Below are positions 35,683-56,984 of a stretch of DNA of 64,000 bases, one piece after another. The notes beneath the pieces are model-generated. The model did not search any database, was not told the origin of the DNA, and saw only the letters and a list, made by a program, of their open reading frames with translations. The stretch comes from an uncultured Planctomycetota bacterium. GTDB taxonomy: Bacteria; Planctomycetota; Planctomycetia; Isosphaerales; Isosphaeraceae. Position numbers and translations under genes: made by a program. The stretch is taken from positions 160,001 to 224,000 of the forward strand of contig CAWGMQ010000004.1 in the NCBI GenBank assembly GCA_963823665.1, given 5' to 3'. How positions within the stretch are numbered: the first letter of the stretch is position 1; each line of letters opens with the position of its first letter.

Positions 35683-35756
<74 letters not shown>

Positions 35757-35815
35757 CTTGGCCACAGCGTTCCACCTCCCTCACGGCCGCAGACGTCGCC
35801 TCGTTCGCCGGCGCC

Positions 35816-37845: not shown

Positions 37846-37847
37846 CT

Positions 37848-38282: not shown

Positions 38283-38335
38283 GAAAAAGGTCATGTGAAA
38301 CGGAAACTTACAAGATTATCTTTGGAGACCCGCCA

Positions 38336-38758: not shown

Positions 38759-38765
38759 GTCAAAA

Positions 38766-39796: not shown

Positions 39797-39875
39797 AGTG
39801 ATTTGCTTCCCCGTCCCCAAGGTTCAGACCTCGTCGAGTGAATTGGAAGCCGACTTCCGAGGAGGAAACTACCGG

Positions 39876-40598
39876 CAAGCCAAACCCGTCTCCCGTCCCT
39901 GGCGAAGATTCCTGCGCTTCAGCGTGCGGGGGATGATCGTACTTGTGCTGGTGATCGGTGGGTGGCTCGGGTGGATTGTGCGGAGTGCTCGAATCCAGCG
40001 CGAGGCGGTCGCGGCGATTGAGAACGCTGGAGGCCGGGTTGCTTATGACTGGGAGTGGAGCAACGGGAATCATTTTCCAGGAGGAAAACCCTGGGGGCCA
40101 GGATGGCTCGTGGATCTCATCGGACTCGACTACTTCGGGCACGTCACCTTGGTAGTCATCAACTTCTCCCCAAAGGTATCGGTTGCAACGACCGAACAGA
40201 TCGGGCGGCTCACCCGACTCGAGTGTCTGAATCTTACTGGGTCATCCGCTGGCGACGCCGAGCTCGCGCATGTCCAGGCACTGACCAACCTCCGGTTTCT
40301 CCTGCTCGGCGACACCCAGGTCACCGACTCCGGGCTGGTGCATCTAAAGGGGATCGCCAACCTATCCTTGCTTAGCCTCTATCGCACACAAGTCACTGAC
40401 GCAGGGCTGGCCCAACTGAAGGGGCTTACCAACCTGACGGGCCTCAACCTTAACGGCACTCAGGTCACAGACGTAGGGCTCGCGCAACTGAAGGGGCTTA
40501 CCAACCTCAACGTCCTCGCCCTTGATGGCACTCCGGTCACGGATGCAGGGATCTTTGAGCTAAAGCAGACGCCGCGGAGCGTGAGGATCGTCCGTTAA
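39876..40598 (+). CDS. LRR cassette 1: constant leader/TM + N-cap + 5 LRRs (native start lost)
   Basis: QAKPVSRPWRRFLRFSVRG leader, GKPWGPGWLVDLIGLDYFGHV cap, 24-aa LxxLxLxxTxVTDAGLxxL repeats. Confidence 0.8.
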   Translation, partial: QAKPVSRPWRRFLRFSVRGMIVLVLVIGGWLGWIVRSARIQREAVAAIENAGGRVAYDWEWSNGNHFPGGKPWGPGWLVDLIGLDYFGHVTLVVINFSPKVSVATTEQIGRLTRLECLNLTGSSAGDAELAHVQALTNLRFLLLGDTQVTDSGLVHLKGIANLSLLSLYRTQVTDAGLAQLKGLTNLTGLNLNGTQVTDVGLAQLKGLTNLNVLALDGTPVTDAGIFELKQTPRSVRIVR

Positions 40599-40621
40599 TT
40601 TGATGCTCATCCTGCCGGCAG

Positions 40622-40748
40622 GGAACCGTCCCCGTCGCATCGCGAGGAATCGGTCGCGGATCGATGACCCTCCTGGAACGAGCCGCGTGCGGGCCGTTAT
40701 GATAAATCGAGCGAACAGACATCGGTCCTCCGCTCACTACAGGCCGGC
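40622..40748 (+). promoter_or_regulatory. Conserved inter-cassette element A (-35 degenerate, TATGAT at 40698)
   Basis: Homologous to elements at 42675, 43570, 48493, 50197, 55751. Confidence 0.75.
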
Positions 40749-41899
40749 ATGAACGATCAAGCCAACACGGTCCCACGTCCCCGACGAAGATTCCTGCGCT
40801 TCAGCGTTCGGGGGCTGATCGTTCTGGTGCTGGTGATCGGCGGTTGGTCCGGCTGGACTGTGAGGATGCCCGCATTCAGCGCGAGGCGGTGGCGGCGATT
40901 ACGAAAGCCGGAGGCGGAGTTTCGTACTGCTGGGAACGGAAAGACGGCGCAGATATCCGGAGCGGAAAACCTTGGGCGCCGCGGTGGATCGTGGATCGCG
41001 TCGGAGTCGACTACTTCGGTCCCGTTACCAACGCACGTGTGGTCGCCTCCGATGCAACGCTCGCACGGGTTGGACGTCTCACCGAGCTACAGCGTTTGAA
41101 TCTGATTGGTTCTTCCACTAGCGATTCCGGGATGGCACACCTCTCCGGATTGACCAAACTGTCTGTCCTCGACCTGGACGACACTCAGATCACCGATGCC
41201 GGCCTGGCACATCTGAAGGGACTGACTGGCCTCTCCTGCATTGGTGTAGGCGAGACGCAGATCACCGACGCCGGGCTGAGAGGTCTAGAGCCCTTGACCG
41301 AACTCGCGCGGCTCCGCGTCCGCGGGACCAAGATTACCGACACCGGCGTAGGGCATCTGAGGAAATTGACCAAACTTTCCGAACTCGACGTCAGCTACAC
41401 GAAGGTCACCGACGCAGGAATGGCTCATCTGAAGGGGTTGACCAATCTCACGGAACTCAATCTCAGCGGCACTCAGGTCACCGACGCAGGACTTGTCCAT
41501 CTGACCGGGTTGAACAAACTTTCAGACCTGAGCCTCTTTGACGCCGAGATCACCGACGCTGGCCTGGCTCACCTTAGCGGTTTAACTAACCTCAGGAAAC
41601 TCAACCTCGAGGCCACTGGGGTGACGGATCGGGGCTTGGCTCACGTGAACGGGCTCCGCGACCTCTCGAAACTGAACATCAGCTTTACGCATGTCACCGA
41701 CGCGGGATTGGCGCATTTGAAGTGGATGACCAATCTTGAGCGCTTGGACGTCAGCGATACCCGGGTCACCGACGCTGGTCTCGTGCATCTGAAGGGGCTC
41801 AGAAAGCTCTCAGAACTCACTCTTTACGGCACCCGCGTCACCGACGATGGAATAAAACACTTAAAGCAAGCTTTGCCGAGTCTGACGATCACTCGTTGA
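40749..41899 (+). CDS. LRR cassette 2: 11 LRRs (frameshift ~40865)
   Basis: Leader in ORF 40749, cap and 11 repeats in ORF 40844..41899, ALPSLTI C-cap. Confidence 0.85.
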
Positions 41900-42070
41900 T
41901 CCGATGCGCATCTTGCCGGCCTGCATCGCCAGTCTAACTCCTCGACCTTCCATTCGGAGTCTCACCTGGGGGCCGCGCTGGCCTCCAATATGCGAGTCCG
42001 GTGATCATTAGCGTGGGCTGATATACTAACCGAAATGGAGCTACCGACCTACCGCTCGCCGGACGCCGGC

Positions 42071-42655
42071 ATGACCGATCAAGCCAAACCCGTCTCACGC
42101 CCCTGGCGAAGATTCCTGCGCTTCAGCGTGCGGGGACTGATCGTTCTCATGCTTGCAATGGGTGCCGGTCTGGGTTGGCTCGTTCGCGGCGCACGAATCC
42201 AAAGAGAGGCGGTAGCCGCGATCACTAAGGCCGGCGGCACGGTCGTTTATAACTGGAATGAGGATACCTCGCCGTTCAGCCCGGCGGGTAAGCCGTGGGC
42301 GCCGGGCTGGCTCGTCAAATTCATTGGAGTCCACTATTTCGGTCACGTAACGGGCGTCGATTTCTACGACAACGCATCGACCGATGCTGGGCTGGTGCAT
42401 CTAAAGCGGCTAAATAAACTCTCGCGACTGCACCTTGCTGGTACCCAGCTCACCGATGCCGGACTGGTGCACCTGCACGGGCTCACCAATCTTTCCCACC
42501 TCGATCTGAGCTACACCAAGGTCTCGGACGATGGACGGGCGCATCTGAAGCCGTTGAAAAAGCTCTCCCGGCTCGACGTCTTTGGCAATCGAGTCACAGA
42601 CGCTGGAATCAAACAATTGCGGCTGCCTGCACGGAGACCCAGGATCTACTACTGA
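42071..42655 (+). CDS. LRR cassette 3: 3 LRRs
   Basis: MTDQAKPVSRPWRRFLRFSVRG leader; alternative upstream element with GATATACT. Confidence 0.85.
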   Translation: MTDQAKPVSRPWRRFLRFSVRGLIVLMLAMGAGLGWLVRGARIQREAVAAITKAGGTVVYNWNEDTSPFSPAGKPWAPGWLVKFIGVHYFGHVTGVDFYDNASTDAGLVHLKRLNKLSRLHLAGTQLTDAGLVHLHGLTNLSHLDLSYTKVSDDGRAHLKPLKKLSRLDVFGNRVTDAGIKQLRLPARRPRIYY

Positions 42656-42674
42656 GTCGCCGGGAGCTAGCCAC

Positions 42675-42807
42675 CCTGGAATCGTCCCTGTCGCATCGCC
42701 AGGCGGCGAGACGTCGGATCTATTGAGCCTCCTTCGACGACTCGCGTGCAAGCCGTTATGATGAATCGAGCGAACAGACATCGGCCCTCTGCTCACAAGA
42801 GGCTGGC
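42675..42807 (+). promoter_or_regulatory. Conserved inter-cassette element with TCGACG-N17-TATGAT
   Basis: -35 at 42734-42739, -10 at 42757-42762. Confidence 0.75.
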
Positions 42808-43546
42808 ATGAACGATCAAGCCAAATCCGCCTCACGTCCCTGGCGAAGATTCCTGCGCTTCAGCATGCGGGGGATGATCGTCGTTGTGCTGGTGATGGGC
42901 GGCGGGCTGGGATGGCTCGTTCGTCAGCGCCCACATCCAGCGCGACGCTGTGGCGGCGATTCAGCATGCTGGCGGCAACGTCTTATATAGCTGGGAGCGG
43001 AATAATAGAACAGGTACGTCGGGAGGAAAGCCGTGGGCGCCAACTTGGCTCGCGGATCTCATCGGCGTTGACTACTTCGGTCACATCACTTCGGTTTGGT
43101 TCGTTGGGTCCTCGAACACAACCCATTCAGTGCTTGCGCAGGTCGGGTGTCTCACAGGAGCTCACGAGGTGCAATTCAAAGGATGCACCGTTAGCGATGC
43201 CGGGATGGCCCATCTGAGAGGCCTTCGCGGGCTATCTTATCTTGACCTCAGCGGCACTCAAATTACCGACGCCGGGCTGGCCCACTTGAAGGGGTTGACC
43301 AACCTTTCGGGGCTCTTCCTCACGGACACTCACGTTTCCGACGCTGGGTTGGTGCACGTGGAGGGGCTGACCAACCTTCAAATCCTCAGTCTTGCCCACA
43401 GTCAGGTTTCCAATGCCGGTCTGGCGCGTCTGAAGGGGCTAACCAAGCTCAACAAACTCTCGCTCGACGTAAGCCAGGCCACAGACGCTGGTGAACGCGA
43501 GCTCCAGCGGGCTTTGCCGAATCTAAAGGTAAAGGTTTACCCTTGA
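42808..43546 (+). CDS. LRR cassette 4: 5 LRRs (frameshift ~42925)
   Basis: Leader + cap + repeats, ALPNL C-cap. Confidence 0.85.
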
Positions 43547-43569
43547 AATGCTGCCCGTCCAAGCGACAC

Positions 43570-43698
43570 GGAATCGCCCCTGTCGCATCGCCAGCCGTTG
43601 GGACGTCTGATCGTCGACCGTCCTTCGACGAGCCGCATGCGCGCCATTATGATGAATCGAGCGAACAGACATCGGCCCTCCGCTCATAAGACGCCGGC
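43570..43698 (+). promoter_or_regulatory. Conserved inter-cassette element with TCGACG-N17-TATGAT
   Basis: -35 at 43625-43630, -10 at 43648-43653. Confidence 0.75.
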
Positions 43699-44448
43699 AT
43701 GAACGATCAACCCAAACCCGCCTCCCGTCCCTGGCGAAGATTCCTGCGCTTCAGCGTGCGGGGGATGATTGTACTGGTGATCGTGATCGCCGGCTGCCTT
43801 GGATGGATCGTACGTAGCGCCCGCAACCACCGACAGGCCGTCGCGGCAATTATCAAGATGAATGGGGAGGTGGGGTACGTGGACGACTCGCGGACCTCCT
43901 TACAAGCGATGCGTGGCGAGCGTTCTCTCAGGTACCTGATCGGCGACTGGTTGGCTATCAACGACGTTTTCAGCGGCGTCCATGTCCGGCTCACGTTGAA
44001 AGAAGGCATGGACCAGGAACTGGCGCTCGCGCCCGTAGGCGATTTGACAAACCTCCAATCACTGAGTTTTGTGGGCGGCGCCATTCAAGATTCCGCGATC
44101 GAGAAAATCGGGCGGGCGAACAACCTCAAATGGCTCCAAATCCAATCCGCACCGCTCACCCGCGTTGGGTTCCGGCATTTGACGCAGTACAAGAACCTGG
44201 AGCACTTGTTCCTCTACGACATCGACATTCCCGAAGGGGCGTTCGAGCACTTCGGCGCGCTGGCGAATCTGAAAACACTCGAGATGCACCAATGCTGGCG
44301 AGTGGACAAAGGCCTTGCCGAGATGCAAGTACCGCCGCGCCTTGCGACCCTCCGTATCCGTTACGCGCCGCTCTCGGATGCCGGCCTCAAGCACATCGCG
44401 CGGCTGCCGCACCTCACAGAACTTTTCCTGGAAGACGTTCTCGACTGA
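43699..44448 (+). pseudogene. LRR cassette 5: 3'-truncated near-duplicate of 48625..49776
   Basis: Colinear with 48625 copy until GAAGACGTTCTCG, then cut by the repeat array. Confidence 0.85.
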
Positions 44449-45030
44449 ATTCAGCTCGACCTTTGCGACTTCTCGCCTTTGCGTGAGCCCCTTTCTCATC
44501 ACACACTTCAAACACAAATCGCGCCCCTGCTGGTGTGCTCCGCACTGAGTTCACCTTTCCTTTTGCGCCTTTTTCCCCTTCGCGCCTTGCGTGAGCCCCT
44601 CTTTTCTCCCGATCACGCATCCAAGAAAATCACCTTGCCCCGTCGCGCATCGCCGCGACTGAATTCAGCTCGACTTTTGCGACTTCTCGCCTTTGCGTGA
44701 GCCCCTCTCTCATCACACACTTCAAACACAAACCGCGCCCCTGCTGGTGTGCTCCGCACTGAGTTCATCTTTCCGTTTGCGCCTTTTTCCCCTTCGCGCC
44801 TTGCGTGAGCCCCTCTTTTCTCCCGATCACGCACCCAAAAAAATCGCCTTGCACCGTCGCGCATCGCCACGACTGAATTCAGCTCGACCTTTGCGACTTC
44901 GCGCCTTTGCGTGAGCCCCTCTTTTGTTCTCGTCACACACCCCAAAAACAAATCGTGCGCCTTCGCGTGTCCTCCCCATTGACATCGCCTCTCCTTTGCG
45001 CCATGTTCCCCTTCGCGCCTTTGCGTGGAC
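44442..45030 (+). repeat. Pyrimidine-rich repeat array, unit 2, with 214-bp tandem duplication
   Basis: CGACTGAATTCAGCTCGAC starts at 44442, 44656, 44870. Confidence 0.9.
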
Positions 45031-45034
45031 CCCT

Positions 45035-45427
45035 CGGTACACGTCGGCCGAGCTGGCCCGGTTGCTTGCCGTGAAACGTGAGCCGAGTTGCAAGCTGGCG
45101 GTCTCCGTCCCGGCTCCCCCGGACCCGGAGGCCAGGCCGAAGCGCAGGCCGTTGTACGGGCCAATCCCGTCGAGCTGGTCGCCCCCGGCCTCTCGGCTCC
45201 CGGGGAAAACCCTCCAGGTCGGGGCCATCTGTTGGCTCTTGGCGGGTTGGAATCGAACGGCCGCGTTCGAGCTGGCGCTGGAGGATCGGCCCGAGTTCGG
45301 CCTCTCCCGGTTCTCGGCCTCGCGGGGCCTCGATACACTGGAAACGGTTGGATTGGTCTCCAAGGTCCGTCGGCCGGGCCGGTCTCCGATCGTGTTGCTC
45401 CGGGACGCTACGGTGGGAAATTCTTGA
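45035..45427 (+). CDS. Winged-HTH protein, copy 2
   Basis: Homologous to 37848 copy with the same 5' junction GGTACACGTCGGCCGAG. Confidence 0.6.
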   Translation, partial: RYTSAELARLLAVKREPSCKLAVSVPAPPDPEARPKRRPLYGPIPSSWSPPASRLPGKTLQVGAICWLLAGWNRTAAFELALEDRPEFGLSRFSASRGLDTLETVGLVSKVRRPGRSPIVLLRDATVGNS

Positions 45428-45439
45428 CGTCAGAGGCCG

Positions 45440-45808
45440 ATGATGCCGCGAGTTCGATTCCGAGTTCGGACAATCCTGCTCTTCATCGCGGTGGTTGCCG
45501 TCCTACTCGCAATGCCGCGAATCGTCTCCCAGTTGTCGCGCATTCGGCCGTTTTGGCTAGAGTGGGATGGCACGATCCTTTGGTTCGTGGAAGACAGGGT
45601 GACGGGGATAGTATACAGCCACGCGCCCACCGTCGTCTTTCACCATTCAGTTAAGACCGAGGTCCCGCTGCCATCGCCTACAACTCTGCTACGAATTGTT
45701 GCGGCGAGCCTGATCTTGGCATCCGCGTTCGTTTATCGGCGCAAGCTTAAGAACCGTGCGAAGCTCCGAGAGACTGCAACTAACAGCGGTGCTTCAGAAT
45801 CCAATTAA
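45440..45808 (+). CDS. Variable cargo membrane protein 2 (RFRVRTIL leader + TM)
   Basis: Same slot as cargo 1, unrelated body. Confidence 0.65.
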   Translation: MMPRVRFRVRTILLFIAVVAVLLAMPRIVSQLSRIRPFWLEWDGTILWFVEDRVTGIVYSHAPTVVFHHSVKTEVPLPSPTTLLRIVAASLILASAFVYRRKLKNRAKLRETATNSGASESN

Positions 45809-45861
45809 TTGACGGGCAAGCGCAGACCGAAGCGGGAAGGCCGAGAAAGTGTAAGTTAAGA

Positions 45862-46153
45862 ATGGGATGGAAAACCATCAACGGACGCCGGTATTTCTAC
45901 AGGTCGGAGCGAGAGGGAGGCCGAGTCAAAACCACCTATTTTGGGGCCGGTGAGTCGGGCCTGCTGATTCCACTCTTGGAGCGGGAAGAACGGGCCGAGC
46001 TTGAGGAATGTCGGGCCGAGTTCGGCCTCTTCCGTTTCTCGGCCTCCCGTGGCTTGACTATACCGGAGCCGTCCGGTTTGGTCTGCACGGCCCGACCGTC
46101 CGGGACTCTCCCCTGTCGCGAGGATCATTGAAACCACAACGGCGGGCGCTTGA
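45862..46153 (+). pseudogene. MGWKT copy 2 fused at 46011 to 3' fragment of a fourth wHTH copy
   Basis: Switch at TCGGGCCGA microhomology into EFGLFRFSASRGL. Confidence 0.75.
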
Positions 46154-46171
46154 TTGTGCTGGGAGGAAGAT

Positions 46172-46477
46172 TTGGTGCTTTTCCCCCGCTTTCGAATCCA
46201 GTCGATCATGACCGCCATCGCGGCGGTGGCCGTTCTCCTGAGTCTGGTCCACTTCTTGTCGCAACACCCAGTTTTGCTGGGCATTTCTTCTGGATTGCTT
46301 CTCTTGTTCGGGACCAGCGCCTGCATTTTAGTCTGGCCCTTCGCAGTATGGAATTGGTGCCAGCGTTGCTCGAGGTCCGTTCTCATTCCCTTCAAGCCGA
46401 CGACAGGAGGCGAGCATGCGGGTCACCGCGATCTTGCACTTGACGATACCTCTTTTCTGGTACAAACTACCTCCTGA
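46172..46477 (+). CDS. Variable cargo membrane protein 3 (RFRIQSIM leader + TM)
   Basis: GGGAGG RBS; follows wHTH 3' fragment. Confidence 0.6.
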   Translation: MVLFPRFRIQSIMTAIAAVAVLLSLVHFLSQHPVLLGISSGLLLLFGTSACILVWPFAVWNWCQRCSRSVLIPFKPTTGGEHAGHRDLALDDTSFLVQTTS

Positions 46478-46495
46478 TGTGTGCACCTGGAGGTA
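46468..46495. promoter_or_regulatory. Inverted repeat, candidate AbiEi operator
   Basis: TACCTCCTG-N10-CTGGAGGTA directly upstream of abiEi. Confidence 0.5.
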
Positions 46496-46504
46496 ACATG
46501 GACC

Positions 46505-47128
46505 ATGCCAAGTCCGGCCAATCTCTCTGACGATCGGCGACGCCGGGTTGACGCGGCCTTTCGCGAGAGGGGCGGGATAATGCGGATGGCCGAAGCCCTC
46601 CGGGCAGGCGTCCATCGCCGCACGCTGTACGCCCTCCGCGACGCGGGCGTGCTCCAGCAACTCGGCCGCGGGCTCTACCGCCTGGCCGACGCCCCGCCAC
46701 TCTCCCACCCGGACCTCGTCGCGGTCTCGCGACGCGCCCCGAGGGCGATCGTCTGCCTCGTCTCCGCACTCGGTTTTCACGGATTGACCACCCAGGTCGC
46801 ACACGAGGTGTACCTGGCCGTCTCCAGGGACAGCGAGCCGCCCCGCGTCGAATACCCCCCAGTCCGCGTATTCCGGTTCGGCATGCGGGCCTTCAGCGAA
46901 GGGGTCGAGACGCACGACCTGGACGGCGTCCCTGTCCGGATCTACTCACGCGAGAAGACCCTGGCCGACTGTTTCAAATACAGAAACGTGGTTGGGCTCG
47001 ATACCGCGCTCGAGGCGCTACGGCGATATCGCGAAGAGGGCCGGGTCGACGTCGGCGCCATCCTCCGCTACGCCCGCACCTGCCGGGTCGAGAAAGTTAT
47101 TCGCCCGTACCTGGAGGCGATCCTGTGA
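46505..47128 (+). CDS. Type IV TA antitoxin, AbiEi family
   Basis: LGRGLYRL, CLVSALGFHGLTTQ, YSREKTLADCFKYRN motifs. Confidence 0.9.
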   Translation: MPSPANLSDDRRRRVDAAFRERGGIMRMAEALRAGVHRRTLYALRDAGVLQQLGRGLYRLADAPPLSHPDLVAVSRRAPRAIVCLVSALGFHGLTTQVAHEVYLAVSRDSEPPRVEYPPVRVFRFGMRAFSEGVETHDLDGVPVRIYSREKTLADCFKYRNVVGLDTALEALRRYREEGRVDVGAILRYARTCRVEKVIRPYLEAIL

Positions 47129-48036
47129 CTCGGCCGCCGAGGGACGTAGCGGCGTCCGTCCGCGGACGGCTCCGGGACGCGGCCCGGGCCTCGGGCCGCC
47201 CGTTCCAGGAGGTGCTCGAATACTACGCGATGGAGCGCTTCCTGTACCGGTTGGCCCAGTCGCCGCACGCCGGCCGCTTCGTGCTCAAGGGCGCGCTGAT
47301 GTTCCGGGCCTGGGGTGCACCCGAACTCCCGCACGACCCGGGACATTGACTTGCTCGGCCGGCTGGAGAACACCGTCGAAGCGGTCGTGCCGGTGTTGCG
47401 CGACATGTGCGGACTCGTCGTCCAGCCGGACGGGATGGTCTTCGATCCGGCGTCGGTCGGGGCGCCGTGATCAAGGAGGGCGCCGAGTACGCCGGGGTCC
47501 GCGTGACGTTCTTGGGGACCTTGCAGAACGCCCGGGTGGCCATGCAGGTCGATATCGGATTCGGCGACGTGGTGACCCCGGGGCCCGTACCGACCGACTA
47601 CCCGACCCTGCTCGCGCTCCCGGCCCCGCACCTGAACGGCTATCCGCGGGAGACGGTCGTGGCCGAGAAGTTCGAGGCGATGGTCAAGCTCGGACTGGTA
47701 AACAGTCGGATGAAGGACTTCTACGACCTGTGGGTCCTGGCCCGCCGGTTCGACTTCGACGGCCGGACCCTGGTTACGGCAATCGAGCGGACGTTCGCTC
47801 ATCGCAATACCGCGGTCGCCCCCCTCCCGATCGCGCTGACCCCGGCGTTCGCCGACGATCCCGCAAAGCGCTCGCAGTGGAAGGGGTTCGTGCGGAGGAC
47901 CAGACTCGACGACGCGCCGGGGGAACTGGCAGCAGTAACGGGGGAACTCAGAGCGTTCCTTGTTCCAGTGGCGGAGATGGTCGCAGCCGGCACGCCGTTC
48001 GAGCGGAGCTGGAAAGCCCCCGGCCCATGGGCGTGA
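47125..48036 (+). CDS. Type IV TA toxin, AbiEii nucleotidyltransferase (two apparent frameshifts)
   Basis: YAMERFLYRL, FVLKGALM, DID, QVDIGFGD, AEKFEAM, NSRMKDFYDL; GTGA overlap with abiEi. Confidence 0.9.
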
Positions 48037-48057
48037 TGCATGGCTGGACTGAGGGGC

Positions 48058-48224
48058 CGTTGGGCGCGGGTCTCCTGACCCCGCCCTCCTCACCAACCGC
48101 AAGCCTAGTGTCCCGACAATCTTCGATTGAGGACCTGTTGGGCGCGGGTCTACTGACCCCGCCCTCGTCACCGACCGCAGGTCTCCAGGCGGCCGACCCG
48201 CCAATCGAAGATTGTCGCAGCAAC
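48058..48224. repeat. Composite REP-like element (GGCGCGGGTCT..TGACCCCGCC..CCGACCGCAGGTCTCC)
   Basis: Two sub-repeats; closely similar block at 55275-55474. Confidence 0.8.
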
Positions 48225-48226
48225 AG

Positions 48227-48374
48227 CGCTTCTGCGTCGGTCCGGCTCACGGCCTCCCTCGCAATTCTCCAAGCGGTCAACTCGCTGAAAGCCAACAACA
48301 CTGGTCAGACGACAGTGGAGGGAGTCCAGGCCAGGATTGCTCACGAGCGGTTTGTCGAATCGCTTGGGGGGTGA
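48227..48374 (+). pseudogene. 3' fragment ASVRLTASLAILQA...FVESL, possibly TerS-like
   Basis: Homologous fragment at 52785-52925; VRLxA motif like gene 3255. Confidence 0.45.
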
Positions 48375-48492
48375 TCGATTTGCTGACGCTACCGATTCGC
48401 TTACCTGAGTCGGCCGTGCGCACGCAGTTAGATACAATTTTCGGATGTTGGTGCGACAACCTTAACGAACGCCCATCGCGATCGCCAAGCGG

Positions 48493-48624
48493 CCTATAAT
48501 CGCCCCTGTCGTATCGCCAGGCGTTGGGACGCCAAACTACTGACCCTCCTTCGACGAGCCGCATGCCGGCAGTTATGATGAATCGAGCGAACAGACATCG
48601 GTCCGCCGCTCATAAGACGCCCGC
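48493..48624 (+). promoter_or_regulatory. Conserved inter-cassette element with TCGACG-N17-TATGAT
   Basis: -35 at 48551-48556, -10 at 48574-48579. Confidence 0.75.
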
Positions 48625-49776
48625 ATGACCGATCAAGCCAAACCCACCACACGTCCCTGGCGAAGATTCCTGCGCTTCAGCGTGCGGGGGCTGATTGTAC
48701 TGGTGATCGTGATCGCCGGCTGCCTTGGATGGATCGTACGTAGCGCCCGCAACCACCGACAGGCCGTCGCGGCAATTATCAAGATGAATGGGGAGGTGGC
48801 GTACATGGACGACTCGCGGACCTTCTTACAAGCGATGCGCGGCGAGCGTTCTCTGAGGTACCTGATCGGCGACTGGTTGGGTATCAACGACGTTTTCAGC
48901 GGCGTCCATGTCCGGCTCACGTTGAAAGAAGGCACGGACCAGGAACTGGCGCTCGCGCGCGTAGGCGATTTGACAAACCTCCAATCACTGAGTTTTGTCG
49001 GCGGCGCCATTCAAGATTCCGCGATCGAGAAAATCGGGCGGGCGAACAACCTCAAATGGCTCCGGATCCAATCCGCACCGCTCACCCGCGTTGGGTTCCG
49101 GCATTTGGCGCAGTACAAGAACCTGGAGTACTTGTTCCTTTACGACATCGAGATTCCCGAAGGGGCGCTCGAGCACTTCGGCGCGCTGGCGAATCTGAAA
49201 ACACTCGAGATGCACCAATGCTGGCGAGTGGACAAAGGCTTTGCCGAGATGCAAGCACCGCCGCGCCTCGCGACCCTCCGTATCCGTTACGCGCCGCTCT
49301 CGGATGCCGGCCTCAAGCACATCGCGCGGCTGCCGCACCTCACAGAACTTTCCCTGGAAGACGTTCTCGTGACCGACGCCGGAATGGCAAGCCTCCAGGG
49401 CCTGTCCCAGCTCACCGAGCTTCGCCTGAAAAGCGATGATTTGACCGACGCCGCCTTGGCGAGCCTGGCCAGCCTGCGCACCATCCGCCGCCTTTCGATC
49501 GACGTACCAAGAATCACAGACGCAGGTGCCGAGCATCTGGCCCAGCTCACCAACCTCGAGTCGTTAAACTTCACTCGAGAAAGATTGACCGACGCAGGCA
49601 TCATGAAGTTAAAGCCGCTCAAGAAACTAGCCTTGCTGAACATCGGCAGGACAGGAATTACTGAGGACGGCGCCAGCGAACTCCAGAAGGAGTTGCCCAA
49701 GCTCGTGGAGATCACCAGAGGAACGAGAGCTGCCTCAGTTCCAAGACTTCCGCGCGCCAAAACCGCCGGCCGCTAG
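48625..49776 (+). CDS. LRR cassette 6: 10 divergent LRRs, intact
   Basis: Constant leader, different N-cap, 24-aa periodicity, ELPKL C-cap. Confidence 0.88.
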   Translation: MTDQAKPTTRPWRRFLRFSVRGLIVLVIVIAGCLGWIVRSARNHRQAVAAIIKMNGEVAYMDDSRTFLQAMRGERSLRYLIGDWLGINDVFSGVHVRLTLKEGTDQELALARVGDLTNLQSLSFVGGAIQDSAIEKIGRANNLKWLRIQSAPLTRVGFRHLAQYKNLEYLFLYDIEIPEGALEHFGALANLKTLEMHQCWRVDKGFAEMQAPPRLATLRIRYAPLSDAGLKHIARLPHLTELSLEDVLVTDAGMASLQGLSQLTELRLKSDDLTDAALASLASLRTIRRLSIDVPRITDAGAEHLAQLTNLESLNFTRERLTDAGIMKLKPLKKLALLNIGRTGITEDGASELQKELPKLVEITRGTRAASVPRLPRAKTAGR

Positions 49777-49792
49777 CTAGCCACACACGTCC

Positions 49793-49905
49793 CGTGTAGC
49801 AGGCACACTCCGTGTGCCGTCCGCCGAACTTGCCGGTGGGTGGCACTGGCCAGCTCAGTGCTCCAATTCTCGGGCGATTCGCTGTCCCGGAATCGCGAAA
49901 AGCCA
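49793..49905 (+). repeat. ~110-bp REP-like element (TGTAGCAGGCACACTCCGTGTGCC...)
   Basis: Second copy at 52983-53092. Confidence 0.8.
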
Positions 49906-49907
49906 TC

Positions 49908-50038
49908 CTGAGCGCACGCAAGTTACCGACGGGGGGCTGCTTCAACTGCGGAGTCTAACAAAGCTGGAAGAACTTGACCTCACCGTTACGGAAGTTGTTG
50001 ATTTCAAACTGTCAGGCTCTCTGGTGACGGGAATGTAA
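49908..50038 (+). pseudogene. Orphan LRR module (ERTQVTDGGLLQLRSLTKLEELDL)
   Basis: One 24-aa LRR without leader. Confidence 0.65.
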
Positions 50039-50196
50039 GCGAGCATCTTCCTCTTCGTTGCCTCCGTTAGCTTCTGTTCAAGGATTTCGTTGCCACTGAA
50101 TCGGCGATCGCACGAACCCAAATTGGCCAGTGGAATTGGAACAGAAGGCAACCAAGCTAACGAAGAGCAGAGAGTTGATGTGACCCGTCTCGGTCG

Positions 50197-50274
50197 TCCT
50201 TCGACGAGCCCCGTGCGGGCCGTTATGATCAATCGAGCGAACAGACATCGGCCCTCCGCGCAGAAGAGTCCGGC
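50197..50274 (+). promoter_or_regulatory. Promoter half of the inter-cassette element
   Basis: -35 at 50201-50206, -10 at 50224-50229. Confidence 0.75.
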
Positions 50275-50765
50275 ATGAACGATCGAGCGAAACCCGCCGC
50301 CCGTCCCTGGCGAAGATTCCTGCGATTCAGCGTGCGGGGAATGATTTTTCTTGTGGTGGTGATCGGTGGATGGCTTGGCTGGATCGTGCGAAGCGCGCGG
50401 ATTCAGCGCGATGCCGTGGACGCGATCACCAAAGCCGATGGGCAGGTCACATATGACTGGCACTGGACCGGGACCGACCGGAAGGTTGCTCCGACGGGAA
50501 GACCTTGGGCGCCCAGGTGGGTGGTGGATCTCGTTGGAGTTGACTATTTCGGAAACATCAGATGCGTCTTGTTCTACTCACCGTCCAAAGCAACCGGAGC
50601 AACGATCGCACAGGTTGGGCGCCTATCCCAACTACAGGAACTGCATCTCGATGAGTCGTCGCTAGACGACGCCAGCATGGTGCATTTGAAGGGGCTGACC
50701 GAACTCTACTGGTTCAGTCTCAGTGACACTCCGGTCACCGGCGCCGGGCTGGCGCAATTGACGCA
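50275..50765 (+). pseudogene. LRR cassette 7: leader + cap + 2 LRRs, C-cap missing
   Basis: Homology ends after GAGLAQL; ORF then reads through the conserved tail motif (50819-50846) and repeat array. Confidence 0.75.
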
Positions 50766-50927
50766 TATTCACAATTCGCTAGCTTGCTGTCACTGCCTTG
50801 CCCCCCATCGGCGAACGGCCTGGAATCGTCTCCGTCGCATCGCCAGGGTGGACGCGCCCAACTTCCACGCCTCGGTGCAAGCGCGTTCTATGAGCCGACG
50901 TGGCCTCCGGCCAGGCCAATCGCACGC

Positions 50928-51072
50928 AGCCTTACCTTTGCGGCTTCGCGTGAGCCCCTCTTTTGTTCTCCTTGCACGCCCCAAAAACAAATCGTGCGTC
51001 TGCGCGTGTCCTCCCCGTTGAGTTTGCCACTCCCTTTGCGCCTTGTTCCCATTCGCGCCTTTGCGTGAGCCC
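50928..51072 (+). repeat. Pyrimidine-rich repeat array, unit 3
   Basis: Similar to 44885-45030. Confidence 0.8.
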
Positions 51073-51074
51073 CT

Positions 51075-51467
51075 CGGTACACGTCGGCCGAGCTGGCCCG
51101 GTTGCTAACCGTGGAACGGGAGCCGGATTGAAAGCTGGCGATCTCCGTCCCGGCTCTCCCGGACCCGGAGGCCAGGCCGAAGCGCCGGCCGTTGTACGGG
51201 CCGATCCATTGGAGCTGGTGGCTCCCGGCCTCTCTGCTCCCCGGGAAGTCCCTCCAGGTCGGGGCCGTCTGTTGGCTCCTGGTGGGTTGGAATCGATCGG
51301 CGGAGTTCGAGCTGGCGTTGCATGATCGGGCGGAGTTCGGCCTCTCCCGGTTCTCGGCCTGCCGGGGCTTCGATACACTGGAAAACGCCGGGTTGCTCTC
51401 GACCATTGGACGGCCGGGCCGGTGTCCCAAGGTGATGATCGTGGATGCTCACCCAGGAAATGGTTGA
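51075..51467 (+). pseudogene. Winged-HTH copy 3 with in-frame TGA
   Basis: EREPD*KLA where copies 1 and 2 read REP(G/S)CKLA. Confidence 0.7.
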
Positions 51468-51479
51468 CGGGGTACGGCG

Positions 51480-51836
51480 GTGAGGGCATTCCGCTTCCGA
51501 ATCCGGGCGATCATGATCGTGATCGCTACCCTCGCTCTCGCACTTGGCGCGGTTCGATTAGCCCTTCACTACCAGATTGCGAGATTGTCGGTTGAAATCG
51601 GCGAACCCAATTTTGTGATTCTGCATTTGTGGTCGGGTGTCCATCTTACGCAGCGCGGCACGGAGGCAGTCTCGATACAGTTTTCGCTTCAGGAAATGCT
51701 CGTTTGCGTCGGCCTATTTGCCTGCTGCTGCGCGGTACTCTTGCGCCAGTCCAGAACACGCGGCGAAAGGCAAAGCGCTGACTCTGGAGTCATGCCCACA
51801 CGCAGTGTTCCGATAAGGAAATCCCGGGCGCCTTGA
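51480..51836 (+). CDS. Variable cargo membrane protein 4 (RFRIRAIM leader + TM)
   Basis: Same slot between wHTH and MGWKT. Confidence 0.65.
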   Translation: MRAFRFRIRAIMIVIATLALALGAVRLALHYQIARLSVEIGEPNFVILHLWSGVHLTQRGTEAVSIQFSLQEMLVCVGLFACCCAVLLRQSRTRGERQSADSGVMPTRSVPIRKSRAP

Positions 51837-51867
51837 AGCGGAGCTGCCGAGAGAGTGTAGGTTAAAA

Positions 51868-52125
51868 ATGGGATGGAAAACCATCAACGGCCGTCGCTAT
51901 TGCTACAAGTCCGCTACCGCGGCAAACGGCTGATTTCGTCGGGGGATGACGTTGCGTGTTCGCTTCCGAATCCGGACGATCATGCTCGTGGTCGCGGCGA
52001 CGGCGGTCATGTTGGGTCTATGACTACAAGTCGGAGCCCGAGGGAGGCCGAGTCTATACCGCCTTCTTCGGCGCGGGTGAGTCGGGCCCGTTGATTTCAC
52101 TCCTGGGGCGGGAGCATCGGGCTTG
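51868..52125 (+). pseudogene. MGWKT copy 3 interrupted by a ~120-bp insert
   Basis: Insert flanked by direct repeat CTACAAGTC; encodes MTLRVRFRIRTIMLVVAATAVMLGL* (51946-52023). Confidence 0.75.
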
Positions 52126-52139
52126 GAGCCACTACGCGC

Positions 52140-52496
52140 TCAACCCTTCTTACCTGCCTGCCGCTTTTGTTTGGTAGCAGGTGCGGCCTTCGCGGATCGA
52201 GTCGGCGCTACTTTCTTCGACGGAGCTTTCTTGACCGAAAGCGCAGCAGTTTTCTTCTTCGCCGCCACCTTCTTGGTTTTGGAAGCCTGCGCCATCGCCT
52301 TCGGGGCAGGTTTCGACGTCTTGCCCTGCACGGCTTTGGAAGAAGCCTTCGCGCCTTTGGGTGTGCCGCGTGTCGGCATCATATCCCCCACCGCGTGCAT
52401 GGCTTTGGACCCAGCGTTGATCACGACTTCTGCCGCCGACGTCGCCGCATCGCCAATCCGCTCAAGCACGCCTTTGGATTTCTTTTTGCTCAGCAT
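52140..52496 (-). CDS. Lys/Ala-rich histone H1-like protein
   Basis: Very basic K/A/S-rich low-complexity tail. Confidence 0.6.
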   Translation of the reverse strand: MLSKKKSKGVLERIGDAATSAAEVVINAGSKAMHAVGDMMPTRGTPKGAKASSKAVQGKTSKPAPKAMAQASKTKKVAAKKKTAALSVKKAPSKKVAPTRSAKAAPATKQKRQAGKKG

Positions 52497-52736
52497 CAAA
52501 CGCTCCCTGCGTGGTTAGGCAGTGTGTCAACTGTCCCTTCTTCAAGCGACACACAGCATATTCTAGGCTTCGGTCCCCGCGCTTCCTATTCCTTTCGATG
52601 GAATTGCGGGACGATGAGCGACCCCGCCCGGCGGCCGGAGCGACTCCAACCCGCCGCGCCGACACGTGTGTCACTCCGCGATTACAATCCTTGATGTGAG
52701 CGCGACGAACCGTTGACGTCCCTGGGAACGCGGCTG

Positions 52737-52925
52737 ATGTCGCCTATTCGCTTCCGAATCCGGTCGATCATGATCGCCAACTAGCGTCGCCGCGTCCGTC
52801 CGGCTCCGTGCCTCCCTGGCAGATTCTCCAAGCGGCCAACGCCCTGAAGGCCGACGACGCGGGCCCGACAACGGCGGAGGGAGTTGAAGCCGGGTTGGAT
52901 CACAAGCGATTCATTGAATCACTAA
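52737..52925 (+). pseudogene. Leader fragment MSPIRFRIRSIMIA joined to second copy of the VRLxASL fragment
   Basis: 52785-52925 homologous to 48227-48365. Confidence 0.55.
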
Positions 52926-53200
52926 ATAGCATTGCACGATCATGCGACTCAGGTGGGCGGCACTAGCTTCGCCCGTGGTCCGGTGTAGCAGGCACACTCC
53001 GTGTGCCGTCCGCCGAGGTTGTCGGTGGGTGGCACTGGCTGTGCCAGTGCTCCATGCCCGGGCAAATCGCCGTCCCGGAATCGCGAATAGCCACTTAGGC
53101 GGACGATCCGTCGGTCCAAACGCGTTTTTTGGTATGATCGCAGTCGCAGTAGGCATCCAGCCAACGCCTTCGACACGTCCCTCTCTCAGGAGCTTCAACG

Positions 53201-53617
53201 ATGCGTCCGCTTGTACGAGCGCTGTCGTGCAATCTGGTCGCTTTGGTCCTGCTCTGGCCGTCGTCAGCATCCGCGACGACGATCGACTGGATGACTTTCG
53301 AGGAGTTGGTGCTCGGGGCAGATTTCGTCGGCATCGTCGAGTGCGATCGAGCGGGCGGTGTCGTTGCCGGATACTCGGTGCTCGAGTCGTGGAAAGGGCC
53401 CAGGGCCGGTACTCACATTACTATTCGTGTCGCGGTGAACTACTGGGAGCCCCAGTTCCCGATCACCCTCTGCGGCGAGCGATACTTTGTGACGGCGTTC
53501 AAGCAGGCTCCGTTCCCATGGCGAGAGTCCCACACCGCAACTTGCGGAATCGGGTGCTCGTTCTGCTCTCGAACTCAGCTCATGCAAGCGGCGCCCCACG
53601 GCCGGAGAAAACTATGA
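53201..53617 (+). CDS. Secreted hypothetical protein, probably truncated
   Basis: AGGAG RBS, signal peptide ending ASA, FEELVLGADFVG motif. Confidence 0.5.
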   Translation: MRPLVRALSCNLVALVLLWPSSASATTIDWMTFEELVLGADFVGIVECDRAGGVVAGYSVLESWKGPRAGTHITIRVAVNYWEPQFPITLCGERYFVTAFKQAPFPWRESHTATCGIGCSFCSRTQLMQAAPHGRRKL

Positions 53618-53779
53618 ACTCAGCGAATTCGTTCGAGTCTCTCCTGAGCTGGTGGAAAACACACGGCGACAAGCTGGTCCTCGATGACCCATGGCTGGCG
53701 ATCTTGGAGAAACAGAAGATCGATTGATCGCGCCCGGAAACACGGCAACATATCGACGCCGCACCCACATGAGATCGCC

Positions 53780-54103
53780 ATGTGCAGACAACCCAATCCC
53801 GTCTCCCGTCCCAGGCGAAGATTCCTGCGCTTCAGCGTCCGGGGCCTGATTGTTCTTGTTCTTGTGATCGGTGCTTGGCTCGGCTGGATGGTCCGCAGTG
53901 CACGTATTCAACGGGAAGCGGTGGCGGCGATCGAAAATGCGGGAGGCGAAGTCCTCTATGACCGCGAGTGGACCGACGCCGGGCTGGTGCACCTGAGCAA
54001 GCTGCCCAGCCTTTCGGAACTCTACATCGACGACGCTCAGATCACCGACGCCGGAGTGAAAGAACTCCAGCAAGCTTTGCCACGCCTGACGATCGAACGC
54101 TAA
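53780..54103 (+). CDS. LRR cassette 8: minimal version, 1 LRR + C-cap
   Basis: In-frame join YDREW|TDAGLVHL removes N-cap and most repeats. Confidence 0.75.
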   Translation: MCRQPNPVSRPRRRFLRFSVRGLIVLVLVIGAWLGWMVRSARIQREAVAAIENAGGEVLYDREWTDAGLVHLSKLPSLSELYIDDAQITDAGVKELQQALPRLTIER

Positions 54104-54267
54104 TTGGATGCCCATCCAACCGGCCAGCAAGCATCGTTGTCGCATCGCCACGCGTCGGCTCACCGATCCATCGAGATCCCCCCAGATCGCGTCTGAGAGC
54201 GTGTCTGTGAATCGAACGTGCGGCACGATCCAATGACCGTTGAGGAATTGGGCGCGACGATTGATCG

Positions 54268-54303
54268 CTCCCTCTCCCTCCGGGAGAGGGCCGGGGTGAG
54301 GGT
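54268..54303. repeat. CCCTCTCCC...GGGAGAGGG...GGGTGAGGG REP-like hairpin
   Basis: Palindromic; degenerate copy at ~36635-36668. Confidence 0.7.
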
Positions 54304-54397
54304 CCTTCCGCATGCGACCGCAATTCGCAGACACGCTCTGAGCGGATATACTGAGCCCACCGAAGTAACTTCGACCGTCTGCTCGCCAAAAGCCAGC

Positions 54398-54514
54398 ATC
54401 GCCGATCAAGCCAAACCCACCACACGTCCCTGGCGAACATTCCTGCGCTTCAGCGTGCGGGGGATAATTGTTATTGTGCTCGTGATCGCCCGGCCGGGGG
54501 GGTGTAGTTCTTAG
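54398..54514 (+). pseudogene. LRR cassette 9: leader only (ATG mutated to ATC)
   Basis: IADQAKPTTRPWRTFLRFSVRGIIVIVLVIA then diverges. Confidence 0.75.
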
Positions 54515-54584
54515 CTGACAAACAGTTCGTAAACCGCGGCCAGATTGGATTCCAGTAACCAGGTACGCATATAACACATAAAGC

Positions 54585-55058
54585 ATGATGATGCGCCGCC
54601 CACGTTTGCGGCTTACGATCGCGGGGATCATGGGGATCGTCGCGTGTACTGCCCTCGTTCTGGGGTGCCTCGTCGAGGCAGGTCGGATCAGGCGCACACA
54701 GGCATTCTATCTTCGTGAATCCGCAAAATTTGCCCAGCTCGAGAGCCGCGAAATCCAGAACCAGTCTCTCTATTTGAAGGCCGCACTGCTGGAGAAGAAT
54801 CTCATTGAACGTATGCGAGAAAGAGACGCCGAACGACAGGCGGCCATCCGAGATCACTTTTATGCCCCGATGAAGCGGATCGCTCCAGACACCGAGCGCT
54901 ACAAAATAAACTTCGAGAGGGGCAGGAAATATCTTACTCACTTGGACGAGTCACGAATCAAGGCGAAGCGGTATTCCGAACTGAGCCGCCGGTACAAAAG
55001 GGCCGGTACCTGCCTCTGGCTGCCCTTTGGACCAAACCCCTTGAATCGCGGTGACTGA
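54585..55058 (+). CDS. Membrane-anchored coiled-coil protein with RLRLTIAGIM leader
   Basis: Basic leader + TM, C-terminal KRY...RYKRA...W.P..P.P motif. Confidence 0.65.
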   Translation: MMMRRPRLRLTIAGIMGIVACTALVLGCLVEAGRIRRTQAFYLRESAKFAQLESREIQNQSLYLKAALLEKNLIERMRERDAERQAAIRDHFYAPMKRIAPDTERYKINFERGRKYLTHLDESRIKAKRYSELSRRYKRAGTCLWLPFGPNPLNRGD

Positions 55059-55100
55059 CGGAGCGAAAAGACATCGTGCAGTCGCTCGCCAGAGGCCGGC

Positions 55101-55730
55101 ATGACCGATCAAGCGAGATCCACCACCCGTCCCTGGCGAACATTCCTGCGCTTCAGCGTCCGCGGGATGATCGTTCTTGTGCTGGTGATCGGTGCCGGGC
55201 TCGGCTGGGTGGTCCGGGTGGTCCGTACCGCTCAGATTCAACGTGAGGCAGTGGCGGAGAACACGCGAGCGGGGGATCACCGACCTCCTCACCAACCGCA
55301 GGTCTAGCATCCCGACGATCTTCGATTGACGGCTTGCTGGGCGCGGGTCTCATGACGCCGCCCTCCTCACCGACCGCAGGTCTCCAGGCGGCCGTCCCGG
55401 CAATCCAAGATTGTCGCAGCACTTGTTGGGCGCGGGTTTCATGACCCCGCCCCCCTCACCGACCGCAGGTCTCCAGAAGGAATGGTGCATCTGAGGGGAA
55501 TGACCAAACTACGCTCCCTCGATCTCAGCACCACACAGGTCTCCGGTCCCGGACTGGTGCATCTGCAACGGCTCAACTCCCTGAAGAGCCTTCGGCTTTG
55601 GGGCACTCAGTTATCCGACGAATCGCTGGTTTATCTGAAGGGCTTGGCCTTCGTCTCAGAACTCGACGTCAATGGCACACACCTCAGCAGTGCAGGTTGG
55701 GAAGAGCTGAGTCGGTGGCGCAATCATTAA
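55101..55730 (+). pseudogene. LRR cassette 10: middle replaced by REP-like block; about 3 LRRs remain
   Basis: Leader 55101-55256, repeats 55275-55474, LRRs 55482-55730. Confidence 0.75.
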
Positions 55731-55750
55731 CTTGAAGCCCAACAATCCGG

Positions 55751-55888
55751 CCTGGAATCGTCCCTGTCGCATCGCCAGCCGTCGGCGTCGGGACGTCAGA
55801 TCATCGACCCTCCTTCGACGAGCCGCGTGCGAGCCGTTATGATGAACCGAGCGAATAGAGATCGGCACTCCATTCACAAGAGGCCGGC
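55751..55888 (+). promoter_or_regulatory. Conserved inter-cassette element with TCGACG-N17-TATGAT
   Basis: -35 at 55815-55820, -10 at 55838-55843. Confidence 0.75.
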
Positions 55889-56842
55889 ATGACCGATCAA
55901 GCCAAACCCGTCTCCCGCCCCCGGCGAAGAGTTCTGCGCTTCAGCATGCGGGGGATGATGGTACTCGTGCTGGCGATTGGAGGCTGGCTCGGCTGGTTCG
56001 TGCGGAGCGCTCGCATTCAGCGCGAGGCCGTGGCGGCGATTCAGAAGGGCGGCGGCGAAGTCCACTTTCAGTGGGAGTGGAAGAACGGGACCGTCGTGCC
56101 GGGAGGAAAGCCTTGGGCGCCTGAACAGCTCGTGAAACTACTCGGCGTCGACTATTTCGGTCACATCGCCCACGTGTCGTTCGCCACGAGAGCACAGCTT
56201 GCGAAGCCAACGAGGGACTTGCTCGCACAGCTCGGGGAAATACAACGCCGATCGGCGGAATTGGATGACGTGCGCTATTCGATGATGGAGGCTGAATTCT
56301 CTCACGCCGACGATCTATATCAAAGGCTGATTCTCTCGGGCGAGCTCACGCCCAAGCCACTGATGCCGCTCTTGAAGGGTCAGAGCAAGCTAGCCCATCT
56401 CGATCTTCGCGACAACGACCTGATCTTCGAAGGCTTGGCTCAAATGGAAGAGCTGACCAGCCTGACGACGCTCGACCTTGGCGGCACGGGGATCACGGAT
56501 TCCCAACTGGTGCACCTGAAGAAATTGAGACAGCTCTCAGAGCTTCATCTGGACTCTGTCAACATCTCTGATGCCGGGCTAGCGAATCTGGCGGGACTGG
56601 CCCGAATGTCCCACCTCGACCTCGAGAAGACAGGGGTTACCGACTCCGGTCTGGTTCATTTGGGCCGGCTGACGAAGCTTAGAAAGCTCAGCCTCGCATT
56701 CACTCAGGTCACCGATCGAGGATTGGTACACCTCAAGGAATTGACAAGTCTTTTGCATATCGACCTCAGTTCCACGGGTGTCACGGATGAGGGTGTGAAG
56801 GAGCTGAGGCTCGCCTTGCCGAACGCGACGATCGTGCGCTGA
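55889..56842 (+). CDS. LRR cassette 11: 6 LRRs plus helical insertion, intact
   Basis: Leader, cap, non-LRR insert, repeats, ALPNATIVR C-cap. Confidence 0.88.
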   Translation: MTDQAKPVSRPRRRVLRFSMRGMMVLVLAIGGWLGWFVRSARIQREAVAAIQKGGGEVHFQWEWKNGTVVPGGKPWAPEQLVKLLGVDYFGHIAHVSFATRAQLAKPTRDLLAQLGEIQRRSAELDDVRYSMMEAEFSHADDLYQRLILSGELTPKPLMPLLKGQSKLAHLDLRDNDLIFEGLAQMEELTSLTTLDLGGTGITDSQLVHLKKLRQLSELHLDSVNISDAGLANLAGLARMSHLDLEKTGVTDSGLVHLGRLTKLRKLSLAFTQVTDRGLVHLKELTSLLHIDLSSTGVTDEGVKELRLALPNATIVR

Positions 56843-56984
56843 CTTCTTGCTCACGCAATCGCCCTGGAATCGTCTCTGTCGCATCTCCACGCTGGAGCCG
56901 TCAAACTCCCGGCCGGCGATTCAATCGCATTCCGTCAGCCGTTCAGCCCGCCCCCTCCCCGAAGCGTGCAGCTACTCATATACA

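Follow-up and report, generated by a model that had tools for sequence, protein, structure and literature searches.

A 64,000-nt stretch of the genome of an uncultured Isosphaeraceae bacterium of the Planctomycetota (genome G000, contig C4, positions 160001-224000; hereafter the window) carries an array of leucine-rich repeat (LRR) genes joined by a two-part repeat, a "tail" behind one gene and a promoter half before the next. Our analysis indicates that the tail is most probably a conserved non-coding segment within the right arm of a satellite-like element that integrates at tRNA genes, and that the array likely grew by repeated integration at a tRNA-Arg gene, microhomology deletions and unequal crossing-over. 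An earlier note, made from the letters of the window, had read the units as self-expressing cassettes of integron-like logic. What it missed is that the tail is part of a mobile element's right arm and is also present without LRR genes.

The repeat exists where that note had placed it. Counting the tail pattern at up to 3 mismatches, with shuffled sequence as the null, we found six matches (42675, 43567, 48493, 50819, 55751 and 56863; 0.00 expected), together with weaker copies at about 40617-40645 and 54122-54150 and a remnant at about 41918. The promoter half (promoter A), TCGACG-N17-TATGAT, is present in exactly five copies (42734, 43625, 48551, 50201 and 55815; 0.21 expected at 1 mismatch), and a sixth at 40675 has GGAACG as its first box. 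The halves do separate, since promoter A stands without a tail at 50189-50274 and a tail without a promoter at 50817. The tail had been described as a short 28-nt motif that follows LRR genes, but its homology reaches from about the LRR stop codon to 20-120 nt downstream, and although most window tails do follow LRR genes, the copy at 48491 lies behind a fragment of a gene resembling the small terminase subunit (TerS; 48237-48374). In 27 of the 31 copies that our script scored as LRR-capped, the stop codon lies 21 nt upstream. Three public soil DNA runs, matched at low share, have contigs that agree with parts of the junctions at 99-100% (for example 42678-42924, with 0 differences), and the junctions are therefore unlikely to be assembly artefacts; one of these runs may come from the source sample.

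Counts for the whole of G000 combined pattern and BLAST searches with fetched stretches, and the genome-wide pattern search gave nine tail matches. At up to 2 mismatches the tail is present in 7 of 121 family genomes and 6 of 53 genera (control, 0 matches), and exact matches were found in named genomes including two uncultured Isosphaeraceae records. A profile search of the fetched loci (numbered L below) yielded 51 tail copies; false matches at L060:14423 and L064:12977 were removed before alignment and L082 was left out as a duplicate of L120.

The parent element could be ordered from relatives: tRNA gene with the left attachment site (attL), tyrosine integrase, helix-turn-helix (HTH) gene, an open reading frame (ORF) resembling single-stranded DNA-binding protein, PolA, winged HTH (wHTH) gene, cargo slot 1, the MGWK and O193 ORFs, TerS-like gene, cargo slot 2, tail, end sequence, CTACCG repeats and right attachment site (attR). 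L142 and L236 are whole elements of ~9-10 kb that run from tRNA gene and integrase to a repeat of the tRNA 3' end (44 bp in L142), and four further whole elements have the same boundaries (L259, L260, L266 and L273). The integrase scores above the PF00589 cut-off, and a tRNA gene and a 3' repeat bound the element in these six loci; the window itself does not have this combination. The replication module has a polymerase above the cut-off of PF00476 (DNA_pol_A); we recognised no primase or helicase in it. PolA is encoded in 15 of the 121 family genomes and not in G000, which has a 50%-identical integrase at another tRNA gene. Slot 2 holds LRR genes, restriction-modification (R-M)-like genes, a phosphoribosyltransferase (PRTase) or nothing. 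Defence-type cargo was seen in both slots (L236:15193-16206, L124:7759-8670, L155 and L161 after TerS, and L249), comprising an endonuclease effector called by PADLOC, TaqI_C, a PRTase and an unnamed 337-aa ORF. No function could be given to O193, which matched no family and whose low-confidence model had no fold match; it had no relatives in a scan of viral contigs, nor the TerS-like protein in a first metagenome scan.

The tail is followed by CTACCG repeats and a tRNA-derived attR in L156, L123 and L249. In the metagenome contig L156, PolA-wHTH-MGWK-O193 and the tail lead into CTACCG repeats (three copies) and then the 3' half of a tRNA-Arg(ACG), the same tRNA type as at the head of the window array, and the contig keeps 18 of 23 tail-core bases at 53% protein identity. 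In L117 (genome G145) the tail comes after PolA, wHTH, MGWK, O193 and an HTH gene, with no LRR gene. Tails with no LRR gene before them were assigned by hand reading, the automatic upstream classes being too loose for use (they called two LRR-free tails LRR and overlooked one LRR tail), and comprise L117, L156, L235, L249 (twice) and the window copy at 48491; tails also follow R-M-like and PRTase cargo. The distance is 99-147 nt from the tail to the CTACCG repeats and ~270-330 nt to the T-arm of attR. Because it lies that far before the repeats, the tail belongs to the inner part of the right arm and is not the att core, which is the tRNA 3' half.

Behind the window's tRNA-Arg(ACG), wHTH/MGWK remnants occur in three sets and TerS fragments twice. 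Arrays of LRR genes or core remnants stand behind tRNA genes in L125, L069, L126, L038, L063, L146 and L124 as well. Stacking inside an intact end is seen in L123 (LRR-tail-promoter-LRR-tail-repeats-attR), and stacking without LRR genes in L249, where a TaqI_C cargo and tail are followed by a TerS fragment joined at a 7-nt microhomology and then by PRTase cargo, tail, repeats and attR. Tails are joined to TerS and O193 fragments in L124 and L235. Homology to the native element end stops at model positions scattered from 23 to 124. In the youngest duplicate pair, the junction is 81% identical, the leader and N-terminus 91% and the coding body 94-100%, a switch that places the crossover in the LRR N-terminal repeat and not in the tail. 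The scattered end points and the N-terminal crossover fit deletion plus homologous recombination.

The array probably formed as follows. An element would have captured an LRR gene with its own -10 box and leader in slot 2, and repeated integration at tRNA-Arg would have given tandem element copies. Loss of DNA between the end of one copy and the slot of the next would have brought tail and end sequence directly up to the following -10 box, so that the -35 side of promoter A would stem from the element end and its -10 box and leader from the LRR gene. Homologous recombination through the N-terminal repeat of ~150 nt would then have spread this new junction, while microhomology deletion and unequal crossing-over would keep each cargo gene with a likely promoter and a tail. 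A second cassette-like array, with no tail, was seen in genome G001 (L125:11752-19745 and L060:290-8203), where slot 1 is stacked ~10 times in units of wHTH 3' part, small membrane gene (RFRIRT-type start) and MGWK 5' part.

Across nine promoter-A copies, pairwise identity is 1.0 for the -10 box (invariant in 9/9), 0.895 for the leader, 0.815 for the -35 box and 0.761 for the spacer, against 0.692 at four-fold degenerate sites of the same genes; the drift that the earlier note saw in the spacer is therefore weak. A -10-like hexamer lies at a fixed distance from 47 of 87 LRR starts in several genera (base-shuffle mean 6.5, maximum 14). This fixed distance and the above-background conservation are those of a sigma-70 promoter, with 5 of 8 scan hits, and by sequence a sigma-70-type promoter of its own is likely present in every LRR unit. 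The -10 box is conserved across genera, whereas the -35 box varies and its surroundings align, in a multiple alignment, with the stretch behind the tail of unjoined copies. The -10 box and leader therefore likely belong to the LRR gene itself, whereas the element end is the likely source of the -35 side. Of the self-expressing cassettes that had been proposed, the likely promoter of each unit and the cassette-like stacking stand, but a cassette recombination site is not supported.

The 23-nt tail core is 0.75 alike between genera versus 0.56 at four-fold sites (27 copies with the stop codon exactly 21 nt upstream) and, in the window, 0.84 versus 0.72 at synonymous sites; the core is thus more conserved than synonymous sites, as had been anticipated, though the copies were picked by likeness. 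We detected no structure in it. RNAalifold paired 0 positions of the consensus, and the mean fold z-score was about 0 on both strands as RNA and as DNA (z < -2 for only 1-4 of the 51 copies on any strand of either molecule, against base shuffles). Several other candidates were rejected: a conserved hairpin (a 6-bp inverted repeat around a 19-nt core lacks covariation, 434 of 500 shuffles scoring as high), read-through or antisense coding (no codon periodicity; 0.885/0.905/0.855), a tRNA fragment or known non-coding RNA (no Rfam or ARAGORN match) and a terminator (none found at tails).

If the tail were a site-specific recombination site, with promoter-LRR-tail units excised and inserted as cassettes, this would account for the head-to-tail order of the units, the fixed 21-nt distance from stop codon to tail, the different cargo before each tail, the differing arrays of two congeneric genomes and LRR proteins that are nearly all unique. 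However, G000 (92% complete) has 0 IntI proteins above the TIGR02249 cut-off (best 112.6 of 265 bits), and no recombinase is linked to the array, the nearest tyrosine recombinase on the contig lying ~280 kb beyond the window. Searched with the R''/R' box pattern of attC sites, 0 of 51 tails had the boxes; on this point the note, which had called the tail not attC-like in sequence, was right. There is no single crossover point but the scatter from 23 to 124, and neither a fold nor covariation nor a bottom-strand hairpin was found. The junction of the youngest pair (81%) is less alike than its coding part (97%). Joints read from public contigs point the same way, if weakly: among the 15 of 27 listed, none falls within the tail core and none is a tail circle. 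We therefore regard an integron-like origin as very improbable. Plain tandem duplication of a chromosomal LRR gene, with the tail as a 3'-untranslated control element (terminator, RNA stabiliser or protein site), fares little better and is in our judgement improbable. Most tails do stand directly behind LRR stop codons, the core is more conserved than four-fold sites and unequal crossing-over is visible, but four other genomes or contigs have LRR-free tails at the ends of elements, no terminator or hairpin is present, 21 of 44 LRR ends have no tail, and only the 7 of 121 family genomes given above have the tail at up to 2 mismatches.

A closer competitor keeps the same origin and makes the tail either an accessory site of the att arm (for an excisionase, an IHF-like protein or a regulator) or functionless, its apparent conservation coming from young elements and copy selection. 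The constant 99-147 nt to the CTACCG repeats, the weak excess of core over spacer in copies selected without regard to the core and the loss of the tail in diverged elements all suit it, whereas four elements with intact attR, two of them with detected arm repeats, have no tail, and L156 retains its 18 core bases despite its divergence. We hold this to be a real possibility, about as probable as the packaging role discussed below. Several observations weigh against the satellite-arm origin as we describe it. No single locus combines integrase, TerS module, high-scoring tail and attR; L142 and L236 have the TerS module but chance-level tail scores (12/23; null 10-16), and the tail of L141 was aligned by eye only (13/23). 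No integrase, arm repeat or attR is left in the window, so that accretion there is inferred from remnants. In the promoter-A copies of G000 the native-end profile stops at positions 58-67, just short of the -35 box; it reaches positions 71-86 in G033, G012, G030 and one G001 copy. Because copies were picked by likeness and 21 of 44 LRR ends have no tail scoring at least 16/23, the conservation of the core is inflated, and where only the spacer served to choose the ends, the core (0.73) hardly exceeds the spacer (0.70).

The HTH gene downstream of O193 is small-terminase-like: 56 of 81 members of its family match phrog_4044, "terminase small subunit" (PHROG), and the best match to a solved structure is the NV1 small terminase (PDB profile, E 1.6e-4). 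The pac site of P22 is a 22-bp asymmetric sequence inside terS (PMC9611059) and the cargo hotspots of P4 adjoin cos (PMC9122126). In the live element the tail may, tentatively, be a pac-like site for the neighbouring small terminase, while the tail of the window is likely a relic. This proposal draws on a size and asymmetry like those of P22 pac, on the place beside TerS and a cargo hotspot, and on the absence of tails from all of the 16 loci, a small number, that were fetched for PolA (15) or integrase (1). Four PolA elements with intact attR (L259, L260, L266 and L273) have neither the MGWK-O193-TerS module nor a tail. Other points tell against a packaging site. Foldseek gave the TerS-like protein weak TerS-like matches (E 0.6-5), two elements with a diverged module score no better than chance for the tail, P22 pac lies inside terS whereas the tail lies outside it, and no phage with the tail plus its flanks was found in IMG/VR or GenBank. 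Slot 1 is stacked equally tightly without any tail (L125 and L060), so tight trimming needs no cut site. A helper-phage cos was tried and rejected: a 17-mer had five matches in viral contigs, none with tail flanks, and GenBank phages matched the tRNA part only. No helper phage for these elements was found in these searches.

Two loci switch from planctomycete-type to host-type DNA close to a tail, L117:7270-7400 (G145:C2, binned Actinomycetes) and L118:17700-17741 (G147:C72, binned Alphaproteobacteria). The switch lies ~135 nt (L117, where GC rises from 0.61 to 0.72) and ~35 nt (L118) past the tail start, and either chimeric assembly or transfer may explain it. It is odd to find two joints so near a tail, and they would be consistent with DNA ends close to it. 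It is conceivable, though unlikely, that the tail acts as a signal for the terminase and that the resulting cuts start the stacking of cargo. Planctomycete satellites would thereby build, at their right end, integron-like and still mobile stacks whose cassettes bring their own promoters, and soil Isosphaeraceae would in this way amass hypervariable membrane-anchored LRR binders as an antibody-like repertoire that satellites spread.

The elements resemble PICI-like satellites (PICI, phage-inducible chromosomal island) and tycheposons (10.1101/2020.12.28.424599) in their tyrosine integrase at a tRNA gene, polymerase-bearing replication module, small terminase, ~10 kb size and remnants behind the tRNA gene. 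Each newly arriving tycheposon displaces its predecessors further into the island, so that decayed copies gather behind the tRNA gene, an accretion model that the tandem integration, deletion and junction spread proposed here would match. In contrast to tycheposons, the hosts are of Isosphaeraceae type, PolA is accompanied by the unnamed MGWK and O193 ORFs and cargo is stacked with repeated end sequence; the TerS-bearing elements also carry cargo, whereas that study saw none on PICI-like tycheposons (10.1101/2020.12.28.424599). With P4-like satellites they share a variable cargo slot beside a conserved cis sequence near the element end and defence-type cargo (here R-M-like, AbiE and endonuclease effector genes); recombination at the packaging signal has been proposed there as speculation (PMC9122126, PMC13586616). 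P4 relies on its helper's terminase and a shared cos (PMC9122126, PMC13586616), whereas the present elements encode a TerS-like protein themselves and their cargo builds up in tandem instead of being swapped. Integrons and CALINs (clusters of attC sites lacking integrases) likewise have tandem single-gene units each followed by a repeat, but here IntI, attC boxes, bottom-strand hairpin and single crossover are lacking and each unit has its own likely promoter (PMC8618304). Like P22-type pac, the tail is ~22-23 bp, asymmetric and beside a small-terminase-like gene, but this candidate site lies downstream of that gene, beyond the cargo slot, while P22 pac is inside terS (PMC9611059).

These results offer a concrete route from phage-satellite-like elements to the large paralogous LRR arrays of soil planctomycetes, and they illustrate that an integron-looking array can arise without an integron. 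They also outline a tRNA-targeting satellite family with PolA and MGWK/O193/TerS and provide a short candidate packaging signal. We found no description of such a family in the literature searched, which excluded most subscription papers, and this planctomycete family is apparently undescribed. The interest lies in an apparently undescribed satellite family that feeds hypervariable LRR arrays, not in a new recombination system.

Features of the array in the window (window coordinates)
Feature	Position	Strand	Evidence or remark
tRNA-Arg(ACG)	35683..35757	+	Likely attachment site seeding the island; ARAGORN/Rfam; 3' half is attR of related elements L156, L249
Element 1 remnant	37582..39628	+	Same gene order as whole elements L142, L236
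Element 1 parts			Pyrimidine-rich repeats; wHTH 3' part 37875-38282; small membrane cargo 38336-38758; MGWK ORF 38766-39068; O193 ORF 39047-39628
LRR gene 1, start region damaged	39871..40598	+	Pfam LRR_4
Degenerate tail, promoter A (first box GGAACG, -10 at 40698), leader	40617..40748	+	
LRR gene 2, frameshifted in this assembly	40749..41899	+	
Tail remnant and second junction type (-10-like GATATACT at ~42020)	41900..42070	+	Junction type also on G000 contig C3 (L035)
LRR gene 3	42071..42655	+	
Tail, promoter A (-35 42734, -10 42757), leader	42673..42807	+	
LRR gene 4, frameshifted in this assembly	42808..43546	+	
Tail, promoter A (-35 43625, -10 43648), leader	43565..43698	+	
LRR gene 5, cut off at 44443	43699..44448	+	Versus 48485-49369: 94.5% overall, ~97% in coding part
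Element 2 remnant: repeats, wHTH, small membrane cargo, MGWK 5' fragment	44449..46000	+	
AbiEi/AbiEii toxin-antitoxin (abortive infection) cargo	46481..48036	+	Pfam, PADLOC
Small-terminase-like gene, 3' fragment	48237..48374	+	tblastn; family TerS-like
Tail (behind TerS-like fragment, not LRR), promoter A, leader	48491..48624	+	
LRR gene 6, intact, 383 aa	48625..49776	+	
Promoter A, tail lost	50189..50274	+	
LRR gene 7, truncated	50275..50800	+	
Tail, then ~100 nt of native element end sequence	50817..50925	+	Model positions 1-109
Element 3 remnant: repeats, wHTH, cargo, MGWK fragments, second TerS-like fragment (52823)	50927..52930	+	
Internally deleted LRR gene, degenerate tail (54122)	53780..54210	+	
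Tail, promoter A (-35 55815, -10 55838), leader, behind LRR 3' fragment	55749..55888	+	
LRR gene, 317 aa	55889..56842	+	
Last tail	56861..56898	+	No arm repeats or attR after it

The LRR proteins of the window share an N-terminus made of a basic stretch and a hydrophobic helix, likely a membrane anchor. At 90% identity, almost every relative forms a cluster of its own (235 matches, 120 of them listed). Long-read errors may account for the frameshifts in some of the window genes. At 39725-39790, three short tandem copies of a ~20-nt unit (CCCCGGGGTCAGACCG) stand in place of the promoter of LRR gene 1. Pyrimidine-rich repeats (core CTTTGCGTGAGCCCCT) precede each wHTH remnant (37582-37850, 44449-45035, 50927-51070 and 56981-57060), including a 214-nt tandem at 44442-44869; a screen of the whole elements with the same profile did not detect them. 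The AbiEii gene of the 46481-48036 pair is split in this assembly, and G001 has an LRR fragment in its place. An Uma2 endonuclease at the distal island edge (57207-57752) is also found in G001, where a two-gene insert that by eye looks like an MNT/HEPN-type pair lies inside the orthologous LRR array (L060:12780-13530). Group II intron-like sequence with the start of a reverse transcriptase ORF adjoins another LRR locus of G000 (L033:13500-14200, contig C6; by eye). Two tandem matches to Acido-Lenti-1 RNA, one above the gathering score, lie on the minus strand at 37103-37223, and dispersed repeats of the repetitive extragenic palindromic (REP) kind at 49794-49900, 52983-53090, 48060-48200, 55290-55480 and 54270-54302, some with high depth in the soil runs.

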